From: a virus
Taxonomy: Duplodnaviria; Heunggongvirae; Uroviricota; Caudoviricetes
DNA length: 22,969 nt
Strand: one strand, 5' to 3'
IMG/VR virus record: IMGVR_UViG_2548876695_000005
Location: 1 to 22,969 of that record
The notes under the pieces are model-generated. The model saw nothing but the letters and a program-made list of their open reading frames with translations. It was not told the origin of the DNA and ran no database searches. A program made the translations under genes and the position numbers. Positions 1-22,969 of this stretch are shown here, one piece after another (position 1 is the first letter of the stretch; the number at the start of each line of letters is the position of its first letter).

Positions 1-114
1 CCATCAGAAACGATGATCTGGCAGCCTGAGTTCACAGATAAAACACTCTCCAGGAAAACCGGGGCGGTTCAGTTCCACCTCGCACAAGAAAAACGATAAC
101 GCCGCAGTGATGGA

Positions 115-594
115 TTATTTGAACCATTTACTGGATGGGTGAATGTCACCAATGTGGTGCGTTTCCTCGAAAGATTTTGAGAAGTGCATACCGGGGATAG
201 CGACATCGGCTTGATCCAGAATAGGAGCGTCGATAATGGCATTAATAAAAAACTGGGCACTTTGCTTTGCTAATTCTAATGAGTCAAAGCCATTACCTGA
301 ACTTTCGGTAACTTTAGACAGTTGTCCATTTTTTGAGATAAATAACTCCCAGCCCCATAGCGATTCATGCTGTTTTAAAGAAATAACTACAGATGGACAG
401 TTTTCTGTATCGCCAGAATTAATATCGTCACCAGCCTTAATAAAAATTGGCGATTCCATAAGGCCTACAAAGTTCTCAAGGTCATCAATGGCTTTAGGTC
501 TTGTTTCAAATAGTGGACTTTCAAAGAGGGGGGAACCATCGGAAAGTACCCAGTGTGATCCGTGGTCTTTTTTAAAAAACACATTGAATTTCAT
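115..594 (-). CDS. hypothetical protein, AT-rich accessory gene (about 160 aa)
   Basis: Minus-strand ORF; preferred start is the ATG at 594 (MKFNVFFKK...), preceded by AAGGAG with 5-nt spacing. The track start at 642 is a longer alternative. Lower GC than flanking phage genes and opposite in orientation to the early operon. No motif recognised; no HTH seen. Confidence 0.5.
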   Translation of the reverse strand: MKFNVFFKKDHGSHWVLSDGSPLFESPLFETRPKAIDDLENFVGLMESPIFIKAGDDINSGDTENCPSVVISLKQHESLWGWELFISKNGQLSKVTESSGNGFDSLELAKQSAQFFINAIIDAPILDQADVAIPGMHFSKSFEETHHIGDIHPSSKWFK

Positions 595-732
595 TACAAC
601 TCCTTCTGTGTTGGTGATTGTTATGCCTGATTCACTGCTCAAAGTTACACAGGCATAGCGATGTTATCACAGGAAACACGTGCCGGGCGTGGGGTTATAT
701 CCCGGCATCTTTTCAATATGACGGAGATCAAC

Positions 733-954
733 ATGGACTTAACACAGTGCCCTTCACTCGCCAGCCTGCTCACCCACGGCCAGCAGATCACCCACCGTCA
801 GCATCAACGCGGCTGGATTGAAACCCCGGACGGGCGGTTCTTCCAGCCTAAAGCGGCAGATGTTCAATTTGTTAAAAACTGCCGTGTACCGTTTATGTCG
901 CGCCCGCGTAATAAGCGCCGCTGGTTTTCCCGCTTAATGGGCATCTTTGCGTAG
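733..954 (+). CDS. hypothetical early-operon protein (about 73 aa)
   Basis: ORF track 661..954; preferred start is the ATG at 733 with GGAG 6 nt upstream. First gene of the rightward operon leading to dam and gpA. Function not recognised. Confidence 0.4.
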   Translation: MDLTQCPSLASLLTHGQQITHRQHQRGWIETPDGRFFQPKAADVQFVKNCRVPFMSRPRNKRRWFSRLMGIFA

Positions 955-969
955 TTCGGGGAGGTGGTT

Positions 970-1359
970 ATGTTGATGGATAAGACAGGACAACAGCCAG
1001 GCCGTCGCCAGTTCTTAGAGCAACGGGCTCGACTGCAAGCAAGTTTGAACGTCTCACGCGTGAACGACACTGCAACCCGTTTTAACCGCCTGGATGATGC
1101 CTGTAAAAAGGTGATTTTCATCCTGGCAAACGATGCGTCCAGATACATAGCCGGAATGCCGAAGCTGACCGCCAAACAGCTGGGTTGTACTTACGAAAAT
1201 CTAACCGAAAAGGAGCAAACGTGCCTTTTGATGGGCATTAAGCGCCTTTCCGAATTTGCAGCATCAATGCCGTGGGAATTTGAGGACTACGCCGCACCAC
1301 GCGCCGAAATTCAGGCGATACGCGACAAACCACCCGCGCCAGATAACGCAGTAAATTAA
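970..1359 (+). CDS. hypothetical early-operon protein (about 129 aa)
   Basis: ORF track 964..1359 (GTG); ATG at 970 is preceded by GAGG with 5-nt spacing. Lies between the small early gene and dam. Function not recognised. Confidence 0.5.
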   Translation: MLMDKTGQQPGRRQFLEQRARLQASLNVSRVNDTATRFNRLDDACKKVIFILANDASRYIAGMPKLTAKQLGCTYENLTEKEQTCLLMGIKRLSEFAASMPWEFEDYAAPRAEIQAIRDKPPAPDNAVN

Positions 1360-1429
1360 CAACTAACTACCCACAAAAAAGAAACAGGCGCTAACGCGTC
1401 GGGCTTCTTGCACCCTGGAGAAAGTAAAA

Positions 1430-2320
1430 ATGATTCGATCTCTCGTTAAATGGCCCGGTGGTAAAGGCCGCGTTATGCCTGATTTGCTGCCGATTCTGCC
1501 GAAAGCCGATTGCCTGGTGGAACCGTTTGTCGGCGGTGCTTCTGTTTTCCTCAATACTGAATATCGCCGTTATATCCTGGGTGATATCAACCCAGATTTA
1601 ATTAACCTGTATCGCCAGATAACCCGCTGGCCTGATGCGGTGATCGACGCTGCTCGCCCACTGTTTAAAGTGTACGGCGATAAAGACGGCTATAAGTGGA
1701 TCCGCGATGATTTCAACGCCCGCGCCCGTGACCTACTGTCATTGCGCAGTGTGTTTGAAGATGGGCCGGACGCGGGCAAGATTCTTCGTGCAGCACAATT
1801 TCTTTACCTGAACCGTCACGGATATAACGGCGTAGTACGCTACAACCAACAGGGTGGATATAACGTTCCCTTTGGGCGTCACAAAACCCCGCCTTACTTC
1901 CCGGAAGAACAAATCCGTTTATTCTCTGAAAAAGCTAACGACACGAAAGCTATTTTCGTGTGCTGCGATTTCCAGAGCACGTTAAAAATCATGATTGGTA
2001 GTGACGCGGTTATCTATTGCGATCCGCCATACCTGCCAACAAGCGAAACCGCTAATTTCACCCAATACCACACCGCCCCGTTTGGGATTAAAGAGCATCG
2101 CCAGTTAGCTGCCGCTCTGCTGGATATTAACCGCCTTACTGGTTCGCCGGTGATCCTGTCCAATAGCGACACCCCAGCCACCTGCGAGATTTATCGCTCT
2201 TTCAACTTCCAGGAAATTAGCGTTAACCGTTCTGTCAGCGCGAACGCCATTACCCGAGGGGCCGCCAGTGAGGTGATCGGTATTCTCAAGGTTGCGACTT
2301 CTACGGGCATATGTGAATGA
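1430..2320 (+). CDS. dam: DNA N6-adenine methyltransferase (Dam family)
   Basis: 296 aa. SAM-binding motif EPFVGGASVF near the N-terminus and catalytic DPPY motif (CDPPYLPT). GGAG upstream of the ATG. Stop overlaps the gpA start (ATGA), suggesting translational coupling. Confidence 0.85.
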   Translation: MIRSLVKWPGGKGRVMPDLLPILPKADCLVEPFVGGASVFLNTEYRRYILGDINPDLINLYRQITRWPDAVIDAARPLFKVYGDKDGYKWIRDDFNARARDLLSLRSVFEDGPDAGKILRAAQFLYLNRHGYNGVVRYNQQGGYNVPFGRHKTPPYFPEEQIRLFSEKANDTKAIFVCCDFQSTLKIMIGSDAVIYCDPPYLPTSETANFTQYHTAPFGIKEHRQLAAALLDINRLTGSPVILSNSDTPATCEIYRSFNFQEISVNRSVSANAITRGAASEVIGILKVATSTGICE

Positions 2321-4929
2321 CTAACGCTTTCGCATGGCCTTGGAACGCACCGCGTCCAGCTGTTGGCCCGTACATCTATGAACCGAAAAAAATCGCCCCG
2401 CTTGCTGGGGCGGTGGCGCATCATCCTGCCGTAAAAAAACATATCGATCACATCTTCAAACGTGCCGGTTACAATCCCGCCGAAGTTCGTGACCGTGATG
2501 CGCTCATCCAGGCGCTGGACAGGTACGAACCATGCGGCCTGCCACTGGCCGCCCATCAAAATATAATCCGGCAAGAAATGGAAGCCGCTAAAGCCACGGC
2601 GGCAGCCTGGGCCAATACGCCAGAAGGTGTCGAAGCACGTTTATTATCAGAGCCGTTCTTCATTCGTGAAGTCTGGCGTAAAAAAATTGAGTGGTTACGG
2701 GTCAACCGTGAAACCAGACACACCAATGATTTTCTTATGGGGACAGTGAAAAAATCATTGCTGCGTCTTGATGTTGTGCGCACAAGGCAAGGTGTTTCGC
2801 CTGATATCACCGGCGAACTGGCCGCGTACTGGTTCGGGCGCTGGCAACGGCTGGCTGATTTCACAAAGCGGGAAGCACTAAGCGCCGCTAATGAGATCGC
2901 CAGCCGCATGGCTGAAATGCTGGGGACGGAATGCGAAGCCCTGGGACAGAATGTTTCCGACATGAACGTCGAAGAACTGGACTGGCTTTATTGTCATCTG
3001 GGCCGCGAAATGCTGGCGCTTCGCATTGTGCCGCCTGCATGGTATGCGCCGTGGGAACGTGATCGGATATGTACGGCCATTTTGCGTATGGCTTCGCCTG
3101 ACTGGTGGGGGCGCAAAATCTGGCGCCTGCGTTGTGACTGGCGCGAAAACCAGCTGCGAGCCGTTGGCGCGGTAAATAAAAAAGCGCACGCATACGTTAG
3201 CGCTTCCAGCCTGATCGAGTGGCAGGAACAGCGCCGTAAAAACCGGGATTTTTTCAAAAGTCATGAACTGGTAGACGAAGACGGCAACGTTTCCTCACTT
3301 GAGGACATGATTAATAAATCCACGTCAAACCCGGCTATTCGTCGCCATGAGCTTATGGCCCGAATGGCTGGGGTTGAGCTTGTTGCCCAAAGTCGCGGCG
3401 ATGTTGGCATCTTCCTGACAATCACTTGCCCGTCGAAATATCACAGTAATATTGCATCCGGCCACCATAACGCCAAATGGAATCATTCCACCGTCGCCCA
3501 GGCGCAGTGCTATTTATGCCGTGTGTGGAACCGGGCAACCGCCAAACTGAAACGCGAAGATTTGCGCCCTTATGGCTTCCGTGTCGCCGAGCCGCATCAC
3601 GATGGGACACCACACTGGCACGCGTTGCTGTTTATGCCACAAGAGCAAGTCAAAGCCACGGTTGCGATCCTTCGCACCTACTTCATTGCGGAAGACCGCG
3701 ACGAGCTGGGCCGCAATACCGGCGCTCGTTTCAAGTCAAAAAAAATGGACCCACGGAAAGGGTCAGCAACGGCATACATCGCTAAATACATTTCGAAGAA
3801 TATCGACGGCCACGCGCTGGCCGGTGAACTGGACGACGAAAGCGGCAAGCCGCTGAATGAAAGCGCCAAATATGCAATGGCCTGGGCATCGCTTCACCGT
3901 ATCCGCCAGTTTCAGCCCATCGGACAGCCGCCCATATCGGTTTACCGCGAGCTGCGCAAACTTAGTAATCAGATCACGACCCGACAGAAAATTGACAGTA
4001 CCTTCAAACGTGGTGCGCCATTGCTTGTGGATCCTGCAATGGATGCGGTTTGCGCCGCTGCCGATGTCGGATGCTTTGCTACTTACATCATCCGCCAGGG
4101 TGGTGTTTTGATCCCGCGAGAAAACTATGTCGTCCGTCTGGCCTATCAGCCCGCTGATGAAATGAATGCTTATTGTGAGATCCCCGAAAAGGTTTTCGGG
4201 GTCTGGTCGCCGCGTCTGGGGGATGCCTCCCGTATTTGCACCCGTCTGGTTAAGTGGAAAATTCGAGCCAAATCCAAAACCGTCACTGGGGCCAAAAGCG
4301 GCCCCGGTTTGGGGGTTGACCTTTTGCCGTCGCCAACCGGCGACGCTTGGAGTTCTGTCAATAACTCTACGGAAGACGAAAAAATCACCGATTTTTCGCC
4401 TGGTGTGGAGGGTATTACAGAAGAATCAGAAGAGGAAATCGTCGATTTTGAAAATATGGACCAGCCAACGCGGCGCAAATTGATACGGCGACTACGTGAA
4501 GCACCATTCAAAAGGCGGCACAGCGGATCACCTTATGAACCAGGGAGCGAATTAGATGTTGCCTGGCGTTCTGCCGTGGAAAAAACCGAGGCCAGATCGG
4601 TGGCTGATAAAGCCAGGCGGGCAGCGCTTGCCCCTGCGGTTGCCAGTCTGCTGGCTGATGCGGCGTTGTGTTTGGTTGAGATTTCAGAGATTCAGGCCGT
4701 TTCGCTGTTAATGGGGAGCCGTCTGGAGATTGGCGGGAAATTTTATCAAGCCAGTGCTGGCGGCCAGTTGATAACGCGTCAATTACCTAATGAGTCACGG
4801 ACGGTGAATAAATTATGGGAACATTTACGGGATAACCACGGCATTGATGCCACGCACCTGCGGTTTGATCCGGTCGGGGAATATCAAAAAATGCTGGCGG
4901 GTGCGGAAGGTCGCTACCCTAAAGAATGA
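2317..4929 (+). CDS. A: P2 gpA-type replication initiation endonuclease (rolling-circle initiator)
   Basis: 870 aa. HUH motif (PHWHALLF) and paired active-site tyrosines Y-x3-Y (TAYIAKYISKN), as in P2 gpA-family initiators. Position after dam and before the accessory island fits P2 synteny. Confidence 0.85.
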   Translation: MTNAFAWPWNAPRPAVGPYIYEPKKIAPLAGAVAHHPAVKKHIDHIFKRAGYNPAEVRDRDALIQALDRYEPCGLPLAAHQNIIRQEMEAAKATAAAWANTPEGVEARLLSEPFFIREVWRKKIEWLRVNRETRHTNDFLMGTVKKSLLRLDVVRTRQGVSPDITGELAAYWFGRWQRLADFTKREALSAANEIASRMAEMLGTECEALGQNVSDMNVEELDWLYCHLGREMLALRIVPPAWYAPWERDRICTAILRMASPDWWGRKIWRLRCDWRENQLRAVGAVNKKAHAYVSASSLIEWQEQRRKNRDFFKSHELVDEDGNVSSLEDMINKSTSNPAIRRHELMARMAGVELVAQSRGDVGIFLTITCPSKYHSNIASGHHNAKWNHSTVAQAQCYLCRVWNRATAKLKREDLRPYGFRVAEPHHDGTPHWHALLFMPQEQVKATVAILRTYFIAEDRDELGRNTGARFKSKKMDPRKGSATAYIAKYISKNIDGHALAGELDDESGKPLNESAKYAMAWASLHRIRQFQPIGQPPISVYRELRKLSNQITTRQKIDSTFKRGAPLLVDPAMDAVCAAADVGCFATYIIRQGGVLIPRENYVVRLAYQPADEMNAYCEIPEKVFGVWSPRLGDASRICTRLVKWKIRAKSKTVTGAKSGPGLGVDLLPSPTGDAWSSVNNSTEDEKITDFSPGVEGITEESEEEIVDFENMDQPTRRKLIRRLREAPFKRRHSGSPYEPGSELDVAWRSAVEKTEARSVADKARRAALAPAVASLLADAALCLVEISEIQAVSLLMGSRLEIGGKFYQASAGGQLITRQLPNESRTVNKLWEHLRDNHGIDATHLRFDPVGEYQKMLAGAEGRYPKE

Positions 4930-4933
4930 ATTA

Positions 4934-4977
4934 AATCACGCTATCCGTCGCAGCTGGTTGCGTCGGATAGCGTGATT
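4934..4977 (+). terminator. long hairpin immediately 3' of gpA (14-bp stem, no clean U-tract)
   Basis: AATCACGCTATCCG at 4934-4947 pairs perfectly with CGGATAGCGTGATT at 4964-4977, 5 nt after the gpA stop. No clear U-tract follows, so it may be a processing or regulatory hairpin rather than an intrinsic terminator. Confidence 0.4.
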
Positions 4978-4985
4978 CTGCGGGG

Positions 4986-5012
4986 GCGGGCGGCAAAGAG
5001 CCCGCATTTGAG
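4986..5012 (+). terminator. second GC-rich hairpin followed by ATTTGAGTT (putative intrinsic terminator)
   Basis: GCGGGC at 4986-4991 pairs with GCCCGC at 5000-5005 (8-nt loop), followed by a short T-rich run. Sits at the boundary between GC-rich phage DNA and the AT-rich island. Confidence 0.4.
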
Positions 5013-5293
5013 TTCTGTCAGCGCGATGCCCCTAATCCAATATCTAAATATGCAGTTACGGCATAATGTTAATAGCGGTCATATTCGGTATGCTCCAGTT
5101 AGAAACTACGCTGCGATGTTAAAGATGAGTGATACAAGTGAGTGGGCTAGGCTGTTTGACTCAGCAGAGTAAAGAGGTAATCTTGTTTAAGACAAGTTTC
5201 AAGATAGAATGATTAATGTTATTTGAAGATTTATGTAATACAATATCATTGCAGAGATTTTTAGATAATTGATAAATCATGTTGTCTTATTAA

Positions 5294-8086
5294 ATGTGGG
5301 GTCTGATTTTGGAAAGAAAAATTATTTTTAATAATGGTTTTTTAAGTATAAATAGGGAAGTTATAATTATCTTCTTGATCTACTTTATTCTGGTCGGGTT
5401 GGGTATTTCCGGTGTAATCTACTCTAGATATGTTGATGAAGGGGTAAAGTATTTACTTGTAACACCATCTTTTCTCAATAATTCCCCATTGAATTGGACT
5501 ACTAGTGTTTGGGCGGGAGTTTTAGGCATACATGGAACTATTGCTGCACTATCAATTACATTTATGGGAATGTTTGTTAGTCAGGTTTCTAATTATTCTG
5601 AACATGGCTTTGAAAATATTTGTAAGTCGATGTTGTTGCGGAAAACTAGTTTTTTAAAGTTTAGTTTAAATTCTATTTTTAGTCTTTTAAGTGGTATCGT
5701 ATTGCTTTCATGTGGTGGCGGCATGATTACTTATGCTATATCCATTTTTGTATCGTTATACTTTATTTTTAATTATGGTTCAATGTATCTGAAATTATAT
5801 AATGTTACTGAGAATCCAACTATAATAACTGATCGTTTATTTTTTGAGCTTGATAAGGCTAAAAATGATTATTTATTGATTGACGAACGTAGAAGAACTA
5901 TAGAAAATAAATTTTTAAACATGATTAATGATTTTGAATATATTCATTATGGGTGGGATTCCGATTTTATCAATAAAGGACAACGTAAGTTAAATATTTT
6001 CCAAAATAATCAAAATGTCATTATTAATGATTTTTGTCCAATTTGCTTTAAAGAAATTAACAATGAGCTAGAGCGTTTTTCGAAAGTGGTACGTACTGAT
6101 TTACGCGTGAATCTTAACTTTATATATCCACTATCAACCTCATCGGTTCATATTGAAGTGCAAGATGGAGCGTCGATCGATGAGCTATTAATTAGTAATG
6201 TTACAAAACTATTGAAAAAAGGATTGGTGTTCAGTTCAGCTCCTGAAAGCTTCTTGAATTACGGTAAGTATGAAGATGCAGTAGTTATTAGCTTAAGAAA
6301 TAGTCTTTTTAGTGGTAATGAGTTAGCGTTAGATTTTAGCATAAGAGCTATCTTCACATTAGTTAGTGAAACTGAATTAGTTAAAGTAATACATAACCTC
6401 AATCACTCTTTTGGTTATACTAACAAAAAAAATAATATAGAGTATTCAATTTTTGCTGCTTTTTATATGAAGGTTAGTTCTGAAGTGAGTGGGTATAAAA
6501 ACTATAATATAGTGTGTGATGCTCTTCGATCGATTATGGATTTGGGAAGGTATATTTATGATAATGAGCAATATGATGAATTTTATAAATTGATATCACC
6601 GTCATTGGAACATCGTGCTCAATATAGTTTAGGTGATCCAGAATATCGTTTTTTTGATTTATATATGTCAACGGTGAGAGACAACATCTTGTCAAAGAAT
6701 TATTTGGCATTTAGCCTGAATACTCGATTCTTGACTGAGAAATTTCGTTATCCAGAGTCATCTGATGATGGCGAAACCCTTAGTATCATTGAGAACAAGA
6801 TGGTATCGTGTGTAAGACAGGTTATAACTTTACTGATTATTAGGCTGTGCTATTTATCTGAAAAAAGTGATGGGCATCAGGAGGAATTGAGAATAATAAA
6901 ACAGAATTTAATGAAATGGTTAGCACCTTCATTCCTAGAAGATCTTTTTTATAAGAGTGGCGTGTATGATGTTATATTTACAGTCCCATCTGAACCTGAT
7001 TTTGATGCAAGTAGAACTTTAAGAGATATACCTGATTATGAGGTTGCAACCTTTTCAATAAATAACGATGCTTTCAAAGCAGTATCCCTTTTAATGACTC
7101 AAACATTATTTAATAAAAACAACTTCAATCCTATTTTTATACGTAATAAAAAAGAGTTTATTAAAAATACAAAAATAACAACTCATGAACTGCAATCACT
7201 TATATCATATTTGAAAGGTGATGAATTTTCAGCTTTATTAGAGTTGATTAATGAAGGATCTTCTCAAGAAACAAATCGGATGGAGGTTGCAGAGCATCTT
7301 GAAAGTATAATTTCTGTAAAAAATGAATTAATCGCAAATTCTATTGTTTCTTCTGACCTTGATAAGGTTCTGGTTAATAAATACATAGATAAAGTATCAA
7401 TATCATTAGGTGGGTATTTTAATAAATTCGTAGATATTGATTCTATTCCTGTGTCAAATTCAGTTGTCTGCAATCCATTCTATTCATTGATTAATAAGAG
7501 AGAAGTCTTGCAGTCAATTGATAAAGTGCATTATTCAATGAATAGTTCACATCATGCTGAAGTGTTTGTCTATGCTTGGCTTCATAAAATGCTTGATGGA
7601 ATTAAAGGCCAATATAAAGATGTAAATGAGATCGAAGATGTAAGTGAACTACCTTCCGATAAGCTTATAACAATTCATTACATGGTTAAAGGAGAGGCAA
7701 GTGTTTACCGTTACTCAAAAGGTATGAGAATAACAGATTCAAAAGGAGTTTTGGGTTTGGGGTCTCCTGGTCTTTACTACATGGATTTTTTGAGCGTATT
7801 TTCCTGTCTGCGGAATACTAATTTATTTGATTTGAAAATTGAAAGTATTTCTGATGAGAATATTTCCTTAGTTAAGGGGTTGTATAATTTCAAGGATGAA
7901 AATCCATTGATGTACGCGCTGATGTCTATTAGGATTAATTTGGAATTTATTAATAACGATGGCTTGTCGTTTTATTATATTTCTGTAGATAGTTGTAAAA
8001 AAATCACTGCATTACATGAACAAAAACTTCGTCTATCTTTTAATGATAAAAAACCAATGGATGATATTGGTGAACTTTCAGATTAA
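5294..8086 (+). CDS. large AT-rich hypothetical protein with N-terminal multi-pass membrane domain (candidate anti-phage/abortive-infection effector)
   Basis: 930-aa uninterrupted ORF in a region of very low GC. The ATG at 5294 is directly preceded by an in-frame TAA; no strong SD. Three to four hydrophobic segments within the first ~165 aa (VIIIFLIYFILVGLGISGVIY; VWAGVLGIHGTIAALSITFMGMFV; FSLNSIFSLLSGIVLLSCGGGMITYAISIFVSLYFIF), then a ~770-aa hydrophilic region. I saw no Walker A, HExxH, DPPY or other catalytic signature. Location between gpA and the portal matches the P2 accessory-cargo position. Confidence 0.7.
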   Translation: MWGLILERKIIFNNGFLSINREVIIIFLIYFILVGLGISGVIYSRYVDEGVKYLLVTPSFLNNSPLNWTTSVWAGVLGIHGTIAALSITFMGMFVSQVSNYSEHGFENICKSMLLRKTSFLKFSLNSIFSLLSGIVLLSCGGGMITYAISIFVSLYFIFNYGSMYLKLYNVTENPTIITDRLFFELDKAKNDYLLIDERRRTIENKFLNMINDFEYIHYGWDSDFINKGQRKLNIFQNNQNVIINDFCPICFKEINNELERFSKVVRTDLRVNLNFIYPLSTSSVHIEVQDGASIDELLISNVTKLLKKGLVFSSAPESFLNYGKYEDAVVISLRNSLFSGNELALDFSIRAIFTLVSETELVKVIHNLNHSFGYTNKKNNIEYSIFAAFYMKVSSEVSGYKNYNIVCDALRSIMDLGRYIYDNEQYDEFYKLISPSLEHRAQYSLGDPEYRFFDLYMSTVRDNILSKNYLAFSLNTRFLTEKFRYPESSDDGETLSIIENKMVSCVRQVITLLIIRLCYLSEKSDGHQEELRIIKQNLMKWLAPSFLEDLFYKSGVYDVIFTVPSEPDFDASRTLRDIPDYEVATFSINNDAFKAVSLLMTQTLFNKNNFNPIFIRNKKEFIKNTKITTHELQSLISYLKGDEFSALLELINEGSSQETNRMEVAEHLESIISVKNELIANSIVSSDLDKVLVNKYIDKVSISLGGYFNKFVDIDSIPVSNSVVCNPFYSLINKREVLQSIDKVHYSMNSSHHAEVFVYAWLHKMLDGIKGQYKDVNEIEDVSELPSDKLITIHYMVKGEASVYRYSKGMRITDSKGVLGLGSPGLYYMDFLSVFSCLRNTNLFDLKIESISDENISLVKGLYNFKDENPLMYALMSIRINLEFINNDGLSFYYISVDSCKKITALHEQKLRLSFNDKKPMDDIGELSD

Positions 8087-8240
8087 ATGTAATGTATCAT
8101 TGTAGAGATTTATTCTTACAGTGTTTGAACGCGTTTATTCACTAAGGATTGTTTCTATGTTGTTTATATAGGATATTGATAGTGCGTAAAAGTATGATTT
8201 TATAATGTGTAGGCAATGGGCTGGATAGGGCAATCCTTTA

Positions 8241-8277
8241 CTTATTTGAAAACCGCCGCAATTTGAATGTGCGGCGG
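8241..8277 (-). terminator. intrinsic terminator for the leftward P-Q-zinc finger operon
   Basis: Perfect 8-bp inverted repeat CCGCCGCA (8253-8260) and TGCGGCGG (8270-8277) with a 9-nt loop. On the minus strand the stem is followed by TTTTCAAATAAG. Lies ~70 nt downstream of the minus-strand ORF ending at 8349. Confidence 0.5.
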
Positions 8278-8348
8278 AGGGATGTAATGTACATTAGGTG
8301 TTCAAAGGATTGATGCTTGCGCCGTACATCTATGTGTAGCAGTGGGAT

Positions 8349-8675
8349 TTATGTAGTTTGCCCACTGAGCAGGTCCAGCGCGAATTGACGTTCTTCCGGC
8401 TTGAGCCGGTCAATCAGGAATTTAACCAGCTTGTTGCCGGTCAGCCCGCTGGGGCTGAGGGTATGTGAAAACTCAACGCTATAAACAAATGTATGACCAC
8501 ATTCCACTTCTGTGCAGCCACAGTATAAAGACGCCAGTTTTTTATCTTTCCAGTCAGATTTGCGAATGATGGCCGGTGAGCCGCATTCAGGACATTTAAT
8601 TTTAAAAACTCGCATGTTCACCATCCCGCACGCCATTGCTAATAATGGGGGGGATTTTAACTTAACTGCGCTCAT
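8349..8675 (-). CDS. Ogr/Delta-family zinc-finger protein (putative late-gene transcriptional activator)
   Basis: Contains C-x2-C-x22-C-x4-C (CPEC...22 aa...CTEVEC), the spacing of the P2 Ogr / P4 Delta zinc finger, followed by HTFVYSVEF resembling the Ogr region after the fourth Cys. The ATG at 8675 overlaps the portal stop; an internal ATG at 8615 (MRVFKIKCPEC) is an alternative start giving ~88 aa. Confidence 0.55.
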   Translation of the reverse strand: MSAVKLKSPPLLAMACGMVNMRVFKIKCPECGSPAIIRKSDWKDKKLASLYCGCTEVECGHTFVYSVEFSHTLSPSGLTGNKLVKFLIDRLKPEERQFALDLLSGQTT

Positions 8676-17034: not shown

Positions 17035-19125
17035 ATGTGGGTAACAGCAAAAGAATGTGTTGGTCTTCCTGATTTACCAATGATGGAACATAACATTCGC
17101 CATCGACTCACAAAAGCAGCTGCGGGAAATGCAGCCATGTTACGCAAACGTAAGGGGACAAAAGCAATCGAATTTAATATCGATTGTTTGCCTTCTGGCG
17201 CGCAACAAGTATTGCGTGAACGTTATGCCCTTCAACTGATGACGCAAAAAGCTGATGAATCACCGGCTCCGGTGGTGACAAAGGCCAGACGCTCGCCTGC
17301 CGTGGTTGATGCGGTGGAGGCATATCGCGGATCACCACAACTGATGGTCGAACGCCTTAATGCCCTGACTGAAAACCAGCGCCAGGTGGCTGATGCACGA
17401 ATCGCGATCGTCAGCGAAGTTCTGAAAGTCGCGCAACAACCTGGTTTCAGCTGTGCGAAGGCTATCCGGTTTATCGTTGACAACCTGGCACGTTCGCAGC
17501 TGGACGAGCGCATTGTGGCAATGGTTGAGACGGCGAACGCCAAAAAGGGAAACAGCCGCGCGTTAAGTGAAATCACGCTGAAACGCTGGATTGCGGCCTT
17601 TAACAAGGCGCAGAACGCCGCTGAACGCCTGCTTTTACTGGCACCGGGTAAGCGCCAGGAAATAAAAGCCGAAGATATTAACTGGCTGCCCGAATTTCTG
17701 GCGCAGTATCGCCAGTCAAACGGCCGACCAATGACCGAGGCTTACGAGGATTTTGTCGCTGAATGGCAGCACCGGCACGCTGATGAGCCTTATATGCTCG
17801 ATATCATGCCGTCTTATGACACCATTCGCCGCGCAATGAAGAAACTGCCGGAAGTGGTGAAACAAAAAGGCCGGGTGACCGGCAGTGAATACCGCCAGCT
17901 TGAGGGATTCACGCGCCGCGACTGGTCCAGAATGCCGGTGAATTATGTCTGGATTGGTGACGGTCACGGCATGAAGCTGAAATGCGCACACCCGGTTCAC
18001 GGTCGGCCATTTGCACCGGAAGTGACCTTTGTTATCGACGGTGGCACGCGCTTTGTGGTGGGCTGGAGCCTTGACCTGGCTGAAAATGTTTTCGCCGTAG
18101 CCGGTGCCATACAGCACGGCATTCGCCATCACGGCAAACCGTTTCTGTATTACTCGGATAACGGCTCCGGGGAAACCGCCGACATCCTGGATAAGGAGGT
18201 TGTGGGGATACTGCCGCGACTGGGGATTAATCACCCGACCGGGATTGCCGGTAATCCGCAGGGACGAGGCATTATCGAACGGCTTAACCGCACATTACCG
18301 ATGCGCATAGCCCGTAAATACCGCACCTATTTCGGGAAAGGTGCAGATCGCGAGACGTTACGCAAAACCAACCGCGATTTACGCTCGGCATTTACTGCCC
18401 TGCAACAGGGCAAACGGCTGAACGCCCGGCAGCAGTCAGCGATGCGTGATTTACCGTCCTGGTCTGAACTGATTGATGCCATTCGTGACGGTGTTGAGTG
18501 GTACAACAACCGGCCGCACGATGAATTACCGATGAAGCCGAACGGTAAACATTACAGCCCGGCGGAGTTCAGAAAAAAACGCCTGGCGGAAGAGGACACG
18601 GAAATTGAATGGCTGTCCGATGTTGAGCTGCGGGATATGTTCCGGCCGATGGTGGAACGCCCTGTAAGACGCTGTGAAATACGCTGGCTGAATAATATTT
18701 ACTACGCGCCCGAGCTGCGTGACGAGCATGGTCGTAAGGTGCTTATCAGCTATGACATTCATGATGCCGAACGAATTACCGTGCGTCGCCTGGATGGCAG
18801 CGTGATTTGCGAGGCGGTATGGGACGGCAATAAACGCGAAGCCTTCCCGGTCAGCGCGGAATACTACAAACAGCAGCAGCGCCTTAAAGGTATGCGTAAA
18901 CGCGCAGAGGAAAAAATCCGTGATGCCGAGGATGAGGTTGTCAACGTGCTGGAGCACAAGCCGCAGGAGCCCTGGCTGGAAAACATCTACCGCCCGGTGG
19001 GTAATACGGTGGCCGTTCAGCAACCTGCCGTTGATGATGAACCTGATGAAGAATACGAGCGTAATTTCCAGCGGGGATTGCAGTTGCTGGAAGCGAAATT
19101 AAAAGAAAATGACCCGCTGGCCTGA
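17035..19125 (+). CDS. A: DDE transposase (MuA-like)
   Basis: 696 aa. N-terminus resembles MuA (MELWVSPKECANLPGLP). Candidate DDE residues in WIGDGHG, YYSDNGSGE and GRGIIERLN. Position after ner. Confidence 0.9.
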   Translation: MWVTAKECVGLPDLPMMEHNIRHRLTKAAAGNAAMLRKRKGTKAIEFNIDCLPSGAQQVLRERYALQLMTQKADESPAPVVTKARRSPAVVDAVEAYRGSPQLMVERLNALTENQRQVADARIAIVSEVLKVAQQPGFSCAKAIRFIVDNLARSQLDERIVAMVETANAKKGNSRALSEITLKRWIAAFNKAQNAAERLLLLAPGKRQEIKAEDINWLPEFLAQYRQSNGRPMTEAYEDFVAEWQHRHADEPYMLDIMPSYDTIRRAMKKLPEVVKQKGRVTGSEYRQLEGFTRRDWSRMPVNYVWIGDGHGMKLKCAHPVHGRPFAPEVTFVIDGGTRFVVGWSLDLAENVFAVAGAIQHGIRHHGKPFLYYSDNGSGETADILDKEVVGILPRLGINHPTGIAGNPQGRGIIERLNRTLPMRIARKYRTYFGKGADRETLRKTNRDLRSAFTALQQGKRLNARQQSAMRDLPSWSELIDAIRDGVEWYNNRPHDELPMKPNGKHYSPAEFRKKRLAEEDTEIEWLSDVELRDMFRPMVERPVRRCEIRWLNNIYYAPELRDEHGRKVLISYDIHDAERITVRRLDGSVICEAVWDGNKREAFPVSAEYYKQQQRLKGMRKRAEEKIRDAEDEVVNVLEHKPQEPWLENIYRPVGNTVAVQQPAVDDEPDEEYERNFQRGLQLLEAKLKENDPLA

Positions 19126-19196: not shown

Positions 19197-20129
19197 ATGA
19201 CTGATATTAACGATGTAATCAAGACCATTGATGAACTTATTGATGGCGGCGTACTGACGCAGTATGCCATCGCCAGAGAGGCGGGAATTTCCGACGGCAC
19301 ATTATCGGCTTTCCGTAAGGGAAAATATAAAGGCGATAACGCTGCTGTGGCTGCTTCCCTGCGTTCCTGGTATGAGAACTGGAATAAACAAAGCGCACTG
19401 CCGGAACCGCCGCAGTTTGTGGAAACGCAGACAGTCCAGGAGCTGCGCGCACTGTTTCAGGCGGTTCGTCTGATGGGCTGTATTAACGTTATTGTGGGCG
19501 TACCGGGTGTGGGTAAAACGGCCACTGCCCGTAATTACTGCCAGGAGCAACCAAACACCTGGATGATCACCCTGTCACCCGCGCACTCCAGCGTCACGGA
19601 GTGTCTGCTGGAGCTGGCCGATGCGCTGGGGATTGATTACACCCGCGCGAACAAAGGGGCATTATCCCGCGCCATCCGCCGTCGCCTGATGGGAACGCGT
19701 GGACTGGTGATTGTGGATGAGGCGGATCATCTTGGTATTGACGGTCTGGAGCAACTCCGGGCAATTCAGGACGCCACGGGGATCGGGATGGTGCTTATTG
19801 GTAACCCGCGCGGATTGTTTAAAGGTGGACGCCGCACCTTTGATGATTTATCGCGCCTGTTCAGCCGTCTTGCCCGTACAAAACAACTTCGCAAGGCCAA
19901 AAAGGCGGATGTGCTGGCCATTGCCAGGGCGTGGGGGATCAGTGGTGAGGCCGAGCTGGCCGTCATGCAGGCTATCGCTGAAAAGCCGGGAGCGTTACGC
20001 GTTCTGACACATACGCTTAACCAGGCGTGGCTCACCGCCAGCGGTGAAGGCGCGGCGCTGACAGAAAAACATATTAATGCGGCCTTTAAAGAGGTTTATA
20101 CCAACCCTGAATTACTCTCACAGGTGTGA
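19197..20129 (+). CDS. B: transposition ATPase / target-DNA activator (MuB-like)
   Basis: 310 aa. Strong resemblance to Mu B: LPEPPQFVETQTV, Walker A GVPGVGKT, Walker B-like LVIVDEADHLG, KPGALRVL. GAGG 8 nt upstream of the ATG. Confidence 0.9.
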   Translation: MTDINDVIKTIDELIDGGVLTQYAIAREAGISDGTLSAFRKGKYKGDNAAVAASLRSWYENWNKQSALPEPPQFVETQTVQELRALFQAVRLMGCINVIVGVPGVGKTATARNYCQEQPNTWMITLSPAHSSVTECLLELADALGIDYTRANKGALSRAIRRRLMGTRGLVIVDEADHLGIDGLEQLRAIQDATGIGMVLIGNPRGLFKGGRRTFDDLSRLFSRLARTKQLRKAKKADVLAIARAWGISGEAELAVMQAIAEKPGALRVLTHTLNQAWLTASGEGAALTEKHINAAFKEVYTNPELLSQV

Positions 20130-20131
20130 TT

Positions 20132-20353
20132 ATGGCGGTATTTAATATTCCTGATATTTACGGACGCTTTTACCTGGTTAATTTCGATAACGTGAAGGTG
20201 ATTTCACTGGCCGAAAATAAAGAATGTGGCGATTTACTTTTTGAATTTAATGACCGCACACGAATGGTGATATCTGCCGGACTTGATCGAGAAGGTGCGA
20301 CAGACGTTTACAGCGGAATATGCCGTTCTGTTGGTGCGAAACAAGTCAGCTAA
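20132..20353 (+). CDS. hypothetical small early protein (73 aa)
   Basis: ATG at 20132 with AGGTG 5 nt upstream, 2 nt after the B stop (track lists a GTG at 20126). Function unknown. Confidence 0.5.
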   Translation: MAVFNIPDIYGRFYLVNFDNVKVISLAENKECGDLLFEFNDRTRMVISAGLDREGATDVYSGICRSVGAKQVS

Positions 20354-20365
20354 ATGAGGTGTTAT

Positions 20366-20620
20366 ATGAATATGCAATCCTGCGGTAACAAAATGAATTT
20401 ATTCGACTCCCTGAACAGCGCGCGCCGTCTGACCGAACTTGCCGGTGCGGTACTGGAACGCAGTAAGCGCTATCCGCAACGTTTTGCACTGAAAACCACG
20501 CCGCCGGTAGGCAACGTGCAGGGAACCGGTGAAATTGAAATCACCATACAGACCAACGGCCTGCGCCGCCGTGTGAAGGCCACCCGCATCAGCGGCTGCA
20601 CGGTTTACTGGGAGGTGTGA
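20366..20620 (+). CDS. hypothetical small early protein (84 aa)
   Basis: Preferred ATG at 20366 (GAGGTG 4 nt upstream); the ATG at 20354 is an alternative. Tightly packed with neighbours. Confidence 0.5.
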   Translation: MNMQSCGNKMNLFDSLNSARRLTELAGAVLERSKRYPQRFALKTTPPVGNVQGTGEIEITIQTNGLRRRVKATRISGCTVYWEV

Positions 20621-20621
20621 G

Positions 20622-20903
20622 GTGAAAAAAAATCTCATTGCATGGGCGTGGTCGAGTGGTCTTATTGAGTTTGGTTACGTCCTGCCGGAAGGTGCATTGC
20701 CGATAGTTGCCGGAAAGCCTGCCACGGTACGGCATGTGATTGAGGTTATGGCGCGTCATGGACGTGATGAACAGGAGCAGTTGCTGGTTCCGGGGATACC
20801 GGAAGCGGTGACGGAGGAAGAAGCCTTTAATGCCATGATTCGGTTCTGCCGTGAGGTCAGACGCCGGGTCAGTTATCCAAACAGAACGAGGACCAGAGGA
20901 TGA
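20622..20903 (+). CDS. hypothetical small early protein (93 aa, GTG start)
   Basis: GTG at 20622 preceded by GGAGGTG; begins 1 nt after the previous stop and overlaps the next start (ATGA). Confidence 0.5.
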   Translation: MKKNLIAWAWSSGLIEFGYVLPEGALPIVAGKPATVRHVIEVMARHGRDEQEQLLVPGIPEAVTEEEAFNAMIRFCREVRRRVSYPNRTRTRG

Positions 20904-21172
20904 GTAAAGTCGTACGCATTATTTTCGAATACAAGGAGCACGTTATCCATAAAAACGCTGATGGAACAGTGCGCATGGGGGTAAGTCTGGACATACGTTC
21001 AACCGGGATAAAGCAGAAAGGTGATGGACCCGCCATGATTTTTGGGGTGGTTATGCTCGCGGAAAGCAGAGACTTTGCTGAACTTGTGGCAATGAAAGCC
21101 AGTGCGCTCATGAAAGATATGAGCATGCGTTCCGGGGTTATTAAAGGTAATGAATTTAATCAGCAGGGGTAA
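20900..21172 (+). CDS. hypothetical small early protein (90 aa), paralogue of the next gene
   Basis: ATG at 20900 preceded by AGAGGA. N-terminus MSKVVRIIFEYKEHV is similar to the N-terminus of the downstream ORF. Confidence 0.55.
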   Translation: MSKVVRIIFEYKEHVIHKNADGTVRMGVSLDIRSTGIKQKGDGPAMIFGVVMLAESRDFAELVAMKASALMKDMSMRSGVIKGNEFNQQG

Positions 21173-21176
21173 TTCC

Positions 21177-21470
21177 ATGAGCAAAGTACGCGTTATTTTT
21201 GAATTTAAGCATGTTTCGCATGACGAAAAACCGGCAGGCAATGACTGTGTTGAAGTGCATGAAAAGATTGGTGTGGATGTAAAAACAGAACGTGATACGA
21301 ATAACAGGCCGACGTCACTCTGTGACGTTTATGCAAGTATTCTCCAGTATCACAGTCCTGAAATTATTCAGTTTCTCTCAGCGGAATTTCAGGCATCTGT
21401 ACAGGCTTTTGGGGCGGATGCCATCATTAAACGCCACCGCGTGCATAAAGCATCAGGCACACTGCAATAA
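21177..21470 (+). CDS. hypothetical small early protein (97 aa), paralogue of the preceding gene
   Basis: ATG at 21177 with AGGGG 7 nt upstream (track start 21150 is upstream in frame). N-terminus MSKVRVIFEFKHV is similar to the preceding gene at protein and DNA level. Confidence 0.55.
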   Translation: MSKVRVIFEFKHVSHDEKPAGNDCVEVHEKIGVDVKTERDTNNRPTSLCDVYASILQYHSPEIIQFLSAEFQASVQAFGADAIIKRHRVHKASGTLQ

Positions 21471-21481
21471 GGAAAAACAAA

Positions 21482-22012
21482 ATGGCAAAACGCGTTACAA
21501 AATTAAAGGCCGCAGCAGAGGCGGCACCGCAGACCCGTGAAGAGGTCAGCCGCGATATCCGCACCCTGGGCGATATTCAGCGAGAGGCGCTGCGCCTGGA
21601 AACAGCGATGAATGATGAAGTGGCAGAAATCACCGCCCGTTATACGCCGCAGATTGAAAACCTTAAAAAAGAAATCAAAGTGCTTTTTAAGGGGATTCAG
21701 GACTGGTGCAAAACCAACCGTGATGAGCTGACGAACGGCGGCAAAACCAAAACTGCCAATCTGACCACCGGAACGGTGTCATGGCGACTGGGGAATCCAT
21801 CATGCAGCGTCAGTCGTGATGTGGAAGGTGTGATTGAAATGCTGCGCCGTATGGGGCTTGAGCGATTCATCCGCACGAAAGAGGAAGTGAACAAGGAAGC
21901 GGTCCTGGCGGAGCCGGATGCGGTGAAAGGGATTGCCGGTATTAAGGTGAATAAAGGCGCTGAAAGTTTTTATGTCGAGCCTTTTGAACAGGACGCCGGA
22001 CTGAATAAATAA
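21482..22012 (+). CDS. gam: host-nuclease inhibitor Gam (Mu Gam-like DNA end-binding protein)
   Basis: 176 aa. Strong resemblance to Mu Gam along its length (MAK...RLETEMNDAIAEIT; ANRDELTNGGK.KTANL; RFIRTK.EINKEA; PFEQEAG). AAGGA 8 nt upstream. Confidence 0.85.
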   Translation: MAKRVTKLKAAAEAAPQTREEVSRDIRTLGDIQREALRLETAMNDEVAEITARYTPQIENLKKEIKVLFKGIQDWCKTNRDELTNGGKTKTANLTTGTVSWRLGNPSCSVSRDVEGVIEMLRRMGLERFIRTKEEVNKEAVLAEPDAVKGIAGIKVNKGAESFYVEPFEQDAGLNK

Positions 22013-22109: not shown

Positions 22110-22652
22110 ATGGCATATTTTTATTTCAAATTAGACCGTGTGCAGACAAATAAATATTTCACCAAATATCAACAGACTGTTTTACCGCTACGCAACAGTA
22201 TTCTTCGGGCATTACTGAAAAATACAGGCGCTGCCGGATTGCGCTTAAAGCCGTTTGCCATGGACGTAATCAGTGAGTTTTATTTTTCTGGTGCTCTGCC
22301 TGCGGGCTGGCGTAAGCGCGATGATGTGGCTTTTATCGGGGACGGACCGTGCTTTATTGCCAGACCTGATGAGTCATGCCCTGAAGGACCGGCGATTGCC
22401 GCAATGATTGAAGCCGCTGAACGCGAGTTAAGAAAGCGTCCTGATTTCCTTGTCTGGCTCTGTGAAAAGCTGGGGGTAATGAGAATCCCCTCCATGTTTA
22501 ACATGGACTCCTGGTGGACCCCGTCGCTCTCCCGTGATGCCCTGTGCGTGGTGTTTAAAGTAGGCGCTTATGGCAGGGAAATAAAAGGGGGTATTCCTGA
22601 AGAATGCCAGGAGATTAAACATTCTGAATATGTGGCGCTGACGGAGGAATAA
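22110..22652 (+). CDS. hypothetical early protein (180 aa)
   Basis: ATG at 22110 with AGGA upstream. Function not recognised. Confidence 0.5.
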   Translation: MAYFYFKLDRVQTNKYFTKYQQTVLPLRNSILRALLKNTGAAGLRLKPFAMDVISEFYFSGALPAGWRKRDDVAFIGDGPCFIARPDESCPEGPAIAAMIEAAERELRKRPDFLVWLCEKLGVMRIPSMFNMDSWWTPSLSRDALCVVFKVGAYGREIKGGIPEECQEIKHSEYVALTEE

Positions 22653-22655
22653 TTC

Positions 22656-22901
22656 ATGATTGATGCAAAAGTGCTTGAAGGGGTTAAAAACTGGCTGAGT
22701 ATTTACGGGCGTCTGACCTGCGGCATTCTGGCTGAAAAAATGAATATGCCGCCATCCTCGATGGTTTATTTTCTGCGTGATGCGGTCGATGCCGGGGTGC
22801 TGACGGAATGTAACGGTTTTTATGATATTCCGCGTCCCCGCCCGGTGCAGCCGGTTCGTCGCAAATGCAGCCAGGAAGGTGCGGCTGATGATGTTCAGTG
22901 A
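22656..22901 (+). CDS. hypothetical early protein (81 aa)
   Basis: ATG at 22656 with GGAGG 8 nt upstream, 3 nt after the previous stop. Function not recognised. Confidence 0.5.
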   Translation: MIDAKVLEGVKNWLSIYGRLTCGILAEKMNMPPSSMVYFLRDAVDAGVLTECNGFYDIPRPRPVQPVRRKCSQEGAADDVQ

Positions 22902-22952
22902 ACCGCCCCGGGAATCCTGGAGACTAAACTCCCTGAGAAAGAGGTAAACAGG

Positions 22953-22969
22953 ATGACTAAAAATACACG
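22953..22969 (+). CDS. partial CDS (5' end only), hypothetical
   Basis: ATG at 22953 with GAGG 8 nt upstream; the ORF runs off the window end. Confidence 0.3.

Follow-up and report, generated by a model that had tools for sequence, protein, structure and literature searches.

Silas et al. (bioRxiv 10.1101/2023.04.06.535777; Nat Commun 2025, PMC12373910) gave the name gnarl2 to the early gene E6 of phage Mu (also Mup07, the gene for gp7), which they recovered in a screen for host-sensitising 'counter-defense' accessory genes. The supplement of that study (PMC12373910) lists it as NP_050611.1 (NC_000929, 4784..5047), and these coordinates coincide with those of Mu_7, 'previously called E6'. When expressed alone in the wild Escherichia coli strains ECOR1 and ECOR22, Gnarl2 caused a downshift of the O-antigen bands and increased infection by T5 by 1e5- to 1e6-fold, and the effect was reproduced by disrupting O-antigen genes; the effects were broad-spectrum and showed no correlation with any defence system (PMC12373910). 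Here, we describe five small genes (referred to as w1 to w5) between the transposition gene B and gam of a Mu-like prophage, located towards the end of a 22,969-nucleotide stretch of viral DNA (positions 1 to 22,969 of IMG/VR record IMGVR_UViG_2548876695_000005; referred to as the window). Profile comparisons place the last two of these genes, w4 and w5, in the Mu gp7/E6/Mup07 (Gnarl2) family, with the weaker evidence for w4. As the best explanation of the whole, to which we give a probability of about 0.6, the five would be functional semi-essential early genes carried as mosaic cassettes, with w2 being Kil-like, w3 linked to Gam, and w4 and w5 acting on the O-antigen as Gnarl2-family proteins.

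The w4 gene (20900..21172, + strand, 90 amino acids) and the w5 gene (21177..21470, + strand, 97 amino acids) are the upstream and downstream copies, respectively, of a tandem pair, and both open with an N-terminal family motif (MSKVVRIIFEYKEHVIH at 20900..20950 in w4; MSKVRVIFEFKHVSH at 21177..21221 in w5; both + strand). For comparison, a set of 23 + 80 Gam-anchored loci was gathered from genomes and viral contigs, and all small + strand open reading frames (ORFs) between B and gam were pooled from the 79 loci that had both boundary genes. BLASTP clustering of this pool put w4, w5 and Mu gp7 in a single cluster, together with alleles occupying the gp7 slot of prophages that share 99-100% identity with Mu in B and gam (S11 and S12) and with alleles from Kluyvera and another enterobacterial genome (S22 and S17). 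Single linkage also joined w1 to w3 and w2 to Mu gp8, and these joins were rejected as artefacts of natural fusion or read-through ORFs (L062, L047) rather than homology. The alignment of the gp7 family is collinear up to about residue 80, including a G-P...A-x-[IV] helix start, and all of its members begin with M-[AS]-K-V-x-I-[IF]-E-[FIY]. Four new members (P0097, P0100, P0101 and P0102) fit this alignment; in contrast to Mu gp7, the MS(x)KV start of w4, w5, P0097 and P0100 contains one to three extra residues.

Profiles from which the tested sequences had been left out supported this grouping. Leave-one-group-out profiles recovered all three proteins over almost their entire lengths, with scores of 42.6 bits for w5, 27 bits for Mu gp7 and 19 bits for w4. 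A profile lacking w4 and w5 ranked w5 first (E 7e-11) and w4 second (16.8 bits, E 3e-5, residues 6-78) among the 114 ORFs of at least 50 amino acids in the window, with the third-best ORF reaching only E 1.5, and both genes exceeded all 5000 shuffles on this profile (the best shuffle against w4 scored 12.5 bits). When Mu gp7 was left out as well, the resulting hub profile still gave w5 a score of 36.7 bits (residues 5-82; E 1.8e-10 at Z=1000), next to 25.3 bits for Mu gp7 and 12.3 bits for w4. Stripped of its N-terminal 13 amino acids, w5 still scored 25.6 bits in the window-wide test, and a w4 profile matched P0101 at 16.7 bits. The kinship of w4 and w5 with Mu gp7 thus runs at profile level through the intermediates S11, S12, S17, S22, P0101 and P0102, and it emerged only after intermediate alleles from 100 Gam-anchored loci had been gathered.

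An exhaustive hmmsearch with the merged profile returned 16 matches at E <= 0.001 in 1.84 billion representative proteins, indicating that the family is small, and in these searches it was confined to enterobacterial Mu-like prophages. Its members fill the slot between B or kil and gam in essentially all 79 loci, with one or two per E. coli-type Mu-like locus. Like Mu gp7, w4 and w5 are proteins of about 90 amino acids encoded by hypervariable alleles in one conserved slot of the early operon; this slot holds two tandem copies here and a single copy in Mu. AlphaFold2 modelled both w4 and w5 as a long beta-hairpin followed by two helices, at low confidence (predicted local distance difference test scores of 54 for w4 and 58 for w5).

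Several points weigh against this family assignment, or against reading a function from it. Both proteins are only 16-20% identical to Mu gp7, and identities of this order often accompany a changed target. By hhalign, the Mu gp7 family matched neither the w5 family (E 0.034) nor the w4 family (E 0.15) significantly, and a profile made from Mu gp7 only scored w4 and w5 at 2.6 bits each. With no significant direct comparison, pairwise or by profile, the link of w4 and w5 to the sole characterised member is transitive. Mu gp7 does match the PHROGs family of w5, weakly (phrog_2230, E 0.009). PHROGs itself separates w4 (phrog_4107), w5 (phrog_2230, E 1e-40) and Mu gp7 (phrog_10252). For w4, the score fell to only 10.6 bits once the N-terminal motif was removed. 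The low-confidence models match no known fold, and three Foldseek searches, including PDB and BFVD, gave no match at E <= 0.001.

The first-pass annotation of the window had noted that w4 and w5 share an N-terminal segment at protein and DNA level, and this similarity holds up statistically. BLASTP aligned the two N-termini with 12 identities in 17 positions (E 9e-4), and the Smith-Waterman score of 45 (shuffle mean 24 +/- 4.2) was reached by 3 of 5000 protein shuffles (~6e-4). At DNA level, 25 of 28 aligned bases within the first 31 nucleotides are identical, a score reached by 1 of 2000 codon shuffles (~5e-4). The same annotation had the two proteins diverge beyond this segment, which is too simple a picture, as they stay collinear past the N-terminus at ~17-19% identity. 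A convergent or chance motif at the start of two unrelated genes (imposed, for example, by a constraint on initiation or coupling) would agree with the strongest pairwise signal being limited to 15-17 residues at the start codon, and with the w4-family profile scoring w5 at only 8.2 bits. We nevertheless regard it as very improbable, given that shallow family profiles of w4 and w5 match by hhalign over ~33 columns (E 1e-5, 82% probability), that w4 aligns by BLASTP with another natural allele of w5 (w5B, 59-61% identical to w5) over 86 residues (E 3e-4), and that independent profiles put both proteins in one family over residues 5-80. The low-confidence models of w4 and w5 also agree in the order of their secondary-structure elements.

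Recent gene conversion as the source of the common N-terminus was rejected on account of synonymous differences within the motif (AGT/AGC, TTC/TTT and CAC/CAT), and these likewise speak against a chance motif, as does the conservation of the motif at protein level throughout the family. Since M-[AS]-K-V-x-I-[IF]-E-[FIY] is common to all family groups, alignment identifies the shared start of w4 and w5 as a family-wide constraint rather than a recent remnant private to the pair. Moreover, w5 shares 23-31% identity with alleles that other prophages carry as single copies, but only 17% with w4. In L109, a more distant Mu-like prophage, the single copy present is w5-like; at locus L111, the w4 allele has just 55% identity to that of the window, next to a w5 allele with 93%; and w4/w5 allele combinations are shuffled among sister prophages. 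Together, these patterns point to an old duplication, or to two alleles that became juxtaposed, within an 'MSKV' sub-clade. The earlier proposal of duplication and diversification survives in that w4 and w5 are true, fast-evolving paralogues; the duplication is old, and the N-terminal motif belongs to the whole family.

The presence of five packed ORFs of 73-97 amino acids on the + strand between B and gam, as first described from the letters of the sequence, was borne out by the ORFs themselves, by their junctions and by the gene calls of NCBI for an E. coli O157:H7 locus with 99.9% identity, which comprise the same five genes and differ only in the start of w2. The B stop and w1 start are separated by 2 nucleotides, w1 and w2 by 0 nucleotides (or 12, depending on the start of w2), and w2 and w3 by 1 nucleotide; w3 and w4 overlap in an ATGA (-4), and w4-w5 and w5-gam are 4 and 11 nucleotides apart. 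The small ORFs are preceded by Shine-Dalgarno sequences. Between 19900 and 22200, no promoter-like or terminator-like site was found on the + strand and Rfam gave no match, and an internal promoter, terminator or RNA element was discarded on these grounds. The tight junctions and the lack of such elements fit a single polycistronic early transcript with translational coupling.

Across ~35 sister prophages, the ratio of nonsynonymous to synonymous substitution rates (dN/dS) was 0.21 for w1, 0.10 for w2, 0.13 for w3, 0.29 for w4 and 0.35 for w5, compared with 0.07, 0.10 and 0.09 for the core genes A, B and gam. All five values lie below 1, indicating that purifying selection acts on the genes as coding sequences, and the rate of evolution is ~3x that of the core genes in w1, w4 and w5. 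The latter three also have a guanine-cytosine (GC) content of 0.41-0.48, against 0.55-0.59 in the core genes. ORFs on the - strand across the region were discarded as genes, being unannotated in the O157:H7 locus and lying opposite a + frame under purifying selection, and a direct repeat between w3 and gam (20801 and 21895, 78% over 18 nucleotides) was taken as chance. None of the PADLOC defence-system models matched w1-w5 at E <= 0.1, and w1, w3, w4 and w5 had no match in Pfam, NCBIfam or PDB sequence searches. Word-indexed searches for homologues reached no further than 68% identity, and nearly all of the relatives came from E. coli. In phage genomes, tblastn matches to w1, w4 and w5 were limited to two Shiga toxin (Stx) phages with an inserted Mu-like phage.

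Across the 79 loci, the B-gam interval is assembled from interchangeable cassettes, namely Kil or a Kil-like gene, w1 or Mu gp6, a gp8-like gene, w3, one or two gp7-family genes, and gp9. The comparison across Mu-like phages that had been called for along with the gene calls thus revealed presence/absence variation, allele swaps and fusions. In several sister prophages, w3 is reduced to a 22-codon remnant or absent; w4 has been lost in L046, and some sister prophages have an extra gp8-like gene inserted. Two natural in-frame deletion fusions were also found, both in other E. coli prophages. One (P0036) joins w4 residues 1-49 to w5 residues 79-97, and the other (L062, 3671-3922) joins w1 residues 1-48 to w3 residues 59-93, with removal of the Kil-like gene in between.

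The first gene of the cluster, w1 (20132..20353, + strand, 73 amino acids), belongs to phrog_3375 (E 8e-47), which has no function assigned in PHROGs. Its GC content is ~0.41, and its homologues in other Mu-like prophages (34-51% identity) follow kil or B.

The w2 gene (20366..20620, + strand) matches phrog_2679, labelled 'Kil' (E 8e-46), and sequence comparison identifies it as a distant Kil homologue. It also matches phrog_2743, the family of Mu Kil (gp5) itself (E 1e-3), while Mu Kil matches phrog_2679 in return (E 9e-5). In a direct BLASTP, w2 and Mu Kil are 33% identical, over the C-terminal 39 amino acids only (E 2.5e-4), a part in which they share the motif R-(I/L)-(S/N)-G-C-x-(V/I)-(Y/I)-W. 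Precomputed matches to PF26843 (Kil_protein) exist for w2 homologues 67% and 91% identical to it, and our local Pfam copy gave no match for w2, nor for Mu Kil itself. The two genes are similar in size and both lie in the first part of the B-gam interval, with the difference that w1 separates w2 from B. Three starts can be considered for w2: 20354 (the first-pass call, 88 amino acids), 20366 (the NCBI call, 84 amino acids, behind a GAGGTG Shine-Dalgarno sequence) and 20393. Because of the differing NCBI call, and because homologues in other prophages begin with MNLFDSL (76 amino acids), the start is uncertain, although the range of 73-97 amino acids still holds for the cluster. By analogy with Kil-type small proteins, w2 would kill or arrest the host cell; the 'septation inhibition' attached to the PHROG is an annotation label, not a result for w2.

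The third gene, w3 (20622..20903, + strand, GTG start, 93 amino acids), falls in phrog_1518 (E 4e-43) and is a homologue of the C-terminal domain of long Gam proteins. It is 43% identical to residues 176-248 of the 266-amino-acid Gam of D3112 (AAQ94451.1, named 'host nuclease inhibitor'; phrog_18351; E 8e-19), in which the Gam domain itself spans residues 1-161, outside the w3 match, and it retains the W-(A/S)-SGLI-(E/Q)-FG, PEGA and LVPG-(I/V)-PEA motifs of that C-terminal domain. Pfam did not find the PF07352 Gam domain in w3, and by its domain content w3 is not a Gam, despite the 'host nuclease inhibitor' label of phrog_1518. The 'gam' of D3112/DMS3/JBD-type phages (in D3112 itself, locus L003, 3976-4776) is a two-domain fusion of a Gam domain and a w3-like domain, whereas w3 has a gene of its own, with two others between it and gam. 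Of the 75 phage records matching w3, 65 are from Pseudomonas. Stand-alone copies of the same domain (phrog_1518, e.g. BcepMigl gp54) also occur in unrelated Burkholderia podophages, where they are labelled 'host nuclease inhibitor', and this label appears, from the domain arrangement, to have been transferred from the fusion proteins.

The fusion of a w3-like domain to Gam in D3112-type phages hints at a functional link between w3 and Gam. In line with this, w3 probably acts in the same process as Gam (DNA-end handling or host nucleases). As a separate and rather doubtful possibility, its domain could be a modular Gam partner that transposable phages fuse to or split from Gam. The L109 prophage retains a w3-like gene although a DUF3164 protein replaces its Gam, which weakens a strict pairing of the two. 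This 212-amino-acid protein (L109, 4303-4941) stands at the gam position, with w1-like, Kil-like, w3-like and w5-like genes kept, and may be a functional substitute for Gam.

What w1 to w5 do in this prophage we infer from their relatives, while the reality of the genes, their families, the paralogy of w4 and w5, the mosaicism and the faster evolution follow from the sequence comparisons above. In the mechanism that we propose, a long early transcript would carry the five genes, with coupled translation running from B to gam. The w4 and w5 products would be small non-enzymatic proteins (a predicted beta-hairpin with two helices) that bind host proteins of the envelope or of lipopolysaccharide (LPS) biosynthesis. 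Such binding would remodel the O-antigen after induction or infection, and this would in turn provide superinfection exclusion or mask receptors. The two copies, like the many alleles in other prophages, would differ in target specificity. Because the homology is remote, carrying the Gnarl2 function over to w4 and w5 as small binders of the host O-antigen/LPS pathway is tentative, and we rate it low. For Gnarl2 itself, the LPS gel has n = 1 according to the figure legend and the direct target was not identified (PMC12373910), both of which further temper an O-antigen action of its relatives.

Alternatively, w4 and w5 (perhaps w1 and w3 as well) might inhibit intracellular anti-phage defence, having diversified in an arms race, in the manner of anti-CRISPR or anti-restriction proteins. 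The genes would suit such a role: they are small proteins without enzymatic motifs, encoded in an early non-essential operon adjoining the anti-RecBCD protein Gam, to which w3 relatives are fused; their dN/dS is raised (0.21-0.35 versus ~0.1) and their GC content lies below that of the core genes; and alleles are replaced and genes gained or lost among close relatives. In Mu-like Pseudomonas phages, products of variable small-gene loci (the anti-CRISPR loci, and the early proteins Aqs1 and Tip) act by binding host proteins. The likeness to these small, fast-evolving and exchangeable gene clusters is one of concept only: no sequence relationship was detected, and the anti-CRISPR loci sit in the late region, as opposed to the early operon of w1-w5. 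None of the five genes falls in an anti-defence category of PHROGs, and Gnarl2 is broad-spectrum, does not correlate with defence systems and has its effect reproduced by O-antigen disruption (PMC12373910), so that we consider defence inhibition unlikely. The counter-defence role that the first-pass annotation had suggested for this pair is partly supported, and through homology only: Gnarl2 does stem from a 'counter-defense' screen, but its phenotype concerns the O-antigen barrier and lacks a correlation with intracellular defence. The related idea of the cluster as a region of host takeover and anti-defence is borne out as far as its genes are accessory, fast-evolving, and swapped, deleted or fused, and falls short in that the cluster is functionally mixed (w2 being of Kil type and w3 linked to Gam).

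Less probable again is an accessory role of the small proteins in Mu-type replicative transposition or early expression (of the classical 'arm' type), through action on phage DNA or machinery. Non-essential early functions of Mu stimulate Mu replication, the genes are co-transcribed with A, B and gam, and nearly every E. coli-type Mu-like locus examined has a gp7-family member. Contact with the conserved A/B machinery would, however, call for conservation, whereas alleles in the gp7 slot are only 15-40% identical to one another in prophages with B and gam at 99-100% identity to their Mu counterparts. In addition, Pfam and NCBIfam scans found no DNA-binding domain, and Gnarl2 acts alone in cells without Mu (PMC12373910).

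Coming back to an action of w4 and w5 on the O-antigen, the gp7 slot of enterobacterial Mu-like phages could be an arms-race locus against the O-antigen/LPS machinery, with divergent alleles (Mu gp7, S11, S12, w4, w5 and others) each targeting different variants of it, and with the O157-type prophage encoding either two specificities or a w4-w5 hetero-oligomer. We hold this to be rather doubtful. If true, induction or low-level early transcription of the prophage would remodel the O-antigen of pathogenic E. coli, thereby changing phage susceptibility and possibly serotype-linked traits.

The 1.4-kb region with the small genes was found in 232 of 5426 complete E. coli genomes, many of them O157:H7, and all five genes are labelled 'hypothetical protein' in those annotations. 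For genes that are annotated as hypothetical in 232 complete genomes, including O157:H7 and other Shiga-toxin-producing strains, families and testable functions can now be offered. By sequence, w2, w3, w4 and w5 belong to families that were already known, and it is the assignment of these hypothetical genes to them that is new; only w2 corresponds to a gene with a classical Mu role. The Gnarl2 family, known from one tested protein, is enlarged and turns out to be small and hypervariable within a fixed slot, and the Gam fusion provides a handle on w3. Separating the Kil-like, Gam-linked and Gnarl-like cassettes yields a usable map of a poorly characterised semi-essential region of Mu-like phages.

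The left arm of the Mu-like prophage makes up the final 7.4 kb of the window, and its genes come in the order of a c-type repressor (- strand, HTH_3), ner, transposase A (17035-19125), B, the five small ORFs and gam. The transposition ATPase gene B (19197..20129, + strand), which forms the left boundary of the cluster, has 49% identity to Mu B over 300 amino acids (E 4e-93), and its homologue in the O157:H7 locus carries the label AAA family ATPase. At the right boundary, gam (21482..22012, + strand) matches PF07352 (E 1.5e-41) and has 57% identity to Mu Gam. An Stx2c phage contains an inserted 'Mu-like phage' that matches the stretch 19197-22012 at 96.9% identity. Overall, the element is an E. 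coli prophage of Mu-like type, and the prophage most similar to it occurs in O157:H7 genomes.

Alignment to the annotated Mu insert of LC727881 shows that the Mu-like prophage starts, with its left end (TGTAACCAGG...), at 15609. A P2-like prophage fills the window from 1 to 15608, with genes for Dam methylase, gpA, portal, terminase, scaffold, capsid, small terminase and gpL. The position of the Mu-like end directly after this P2-like prophage indicates that the Mu-like phage transposed into another prophage. An ORF of 930 amino acids (5294-8083, + strand) is located between the replication gene A of P2 type and the gene for the portal; Pfam, PADLOC and NCBIfam gave no match for it. In P2-like phages, this slot is a variable hotspot that often contains anti-phage defence genes, and we regard the ORF as a candidate undescribed defence protein.

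At its other end, the window departs exactly at 22900 from an otherwise 99.7% identical O157:H7 prophage (feature 22899-22969). The foreign sequence that follows (TGAACCGCCCCGGGAATCCTGG...) shortens the homologue of Mu gp11 to 81 amino acids versus 177, and we presume from its resemblance that it is the end of an IS3-family insertion sequence such as IS629. Just 3' of gam lies a gene of 180 amino acids (22110-22652, + strand; phrog_2260) that is missing in many sister prophages, where the gp11 homologue directly follows gam. Its dN/dS of 0.36 was the highest measured here, and the gene is another variable accessory cassette.

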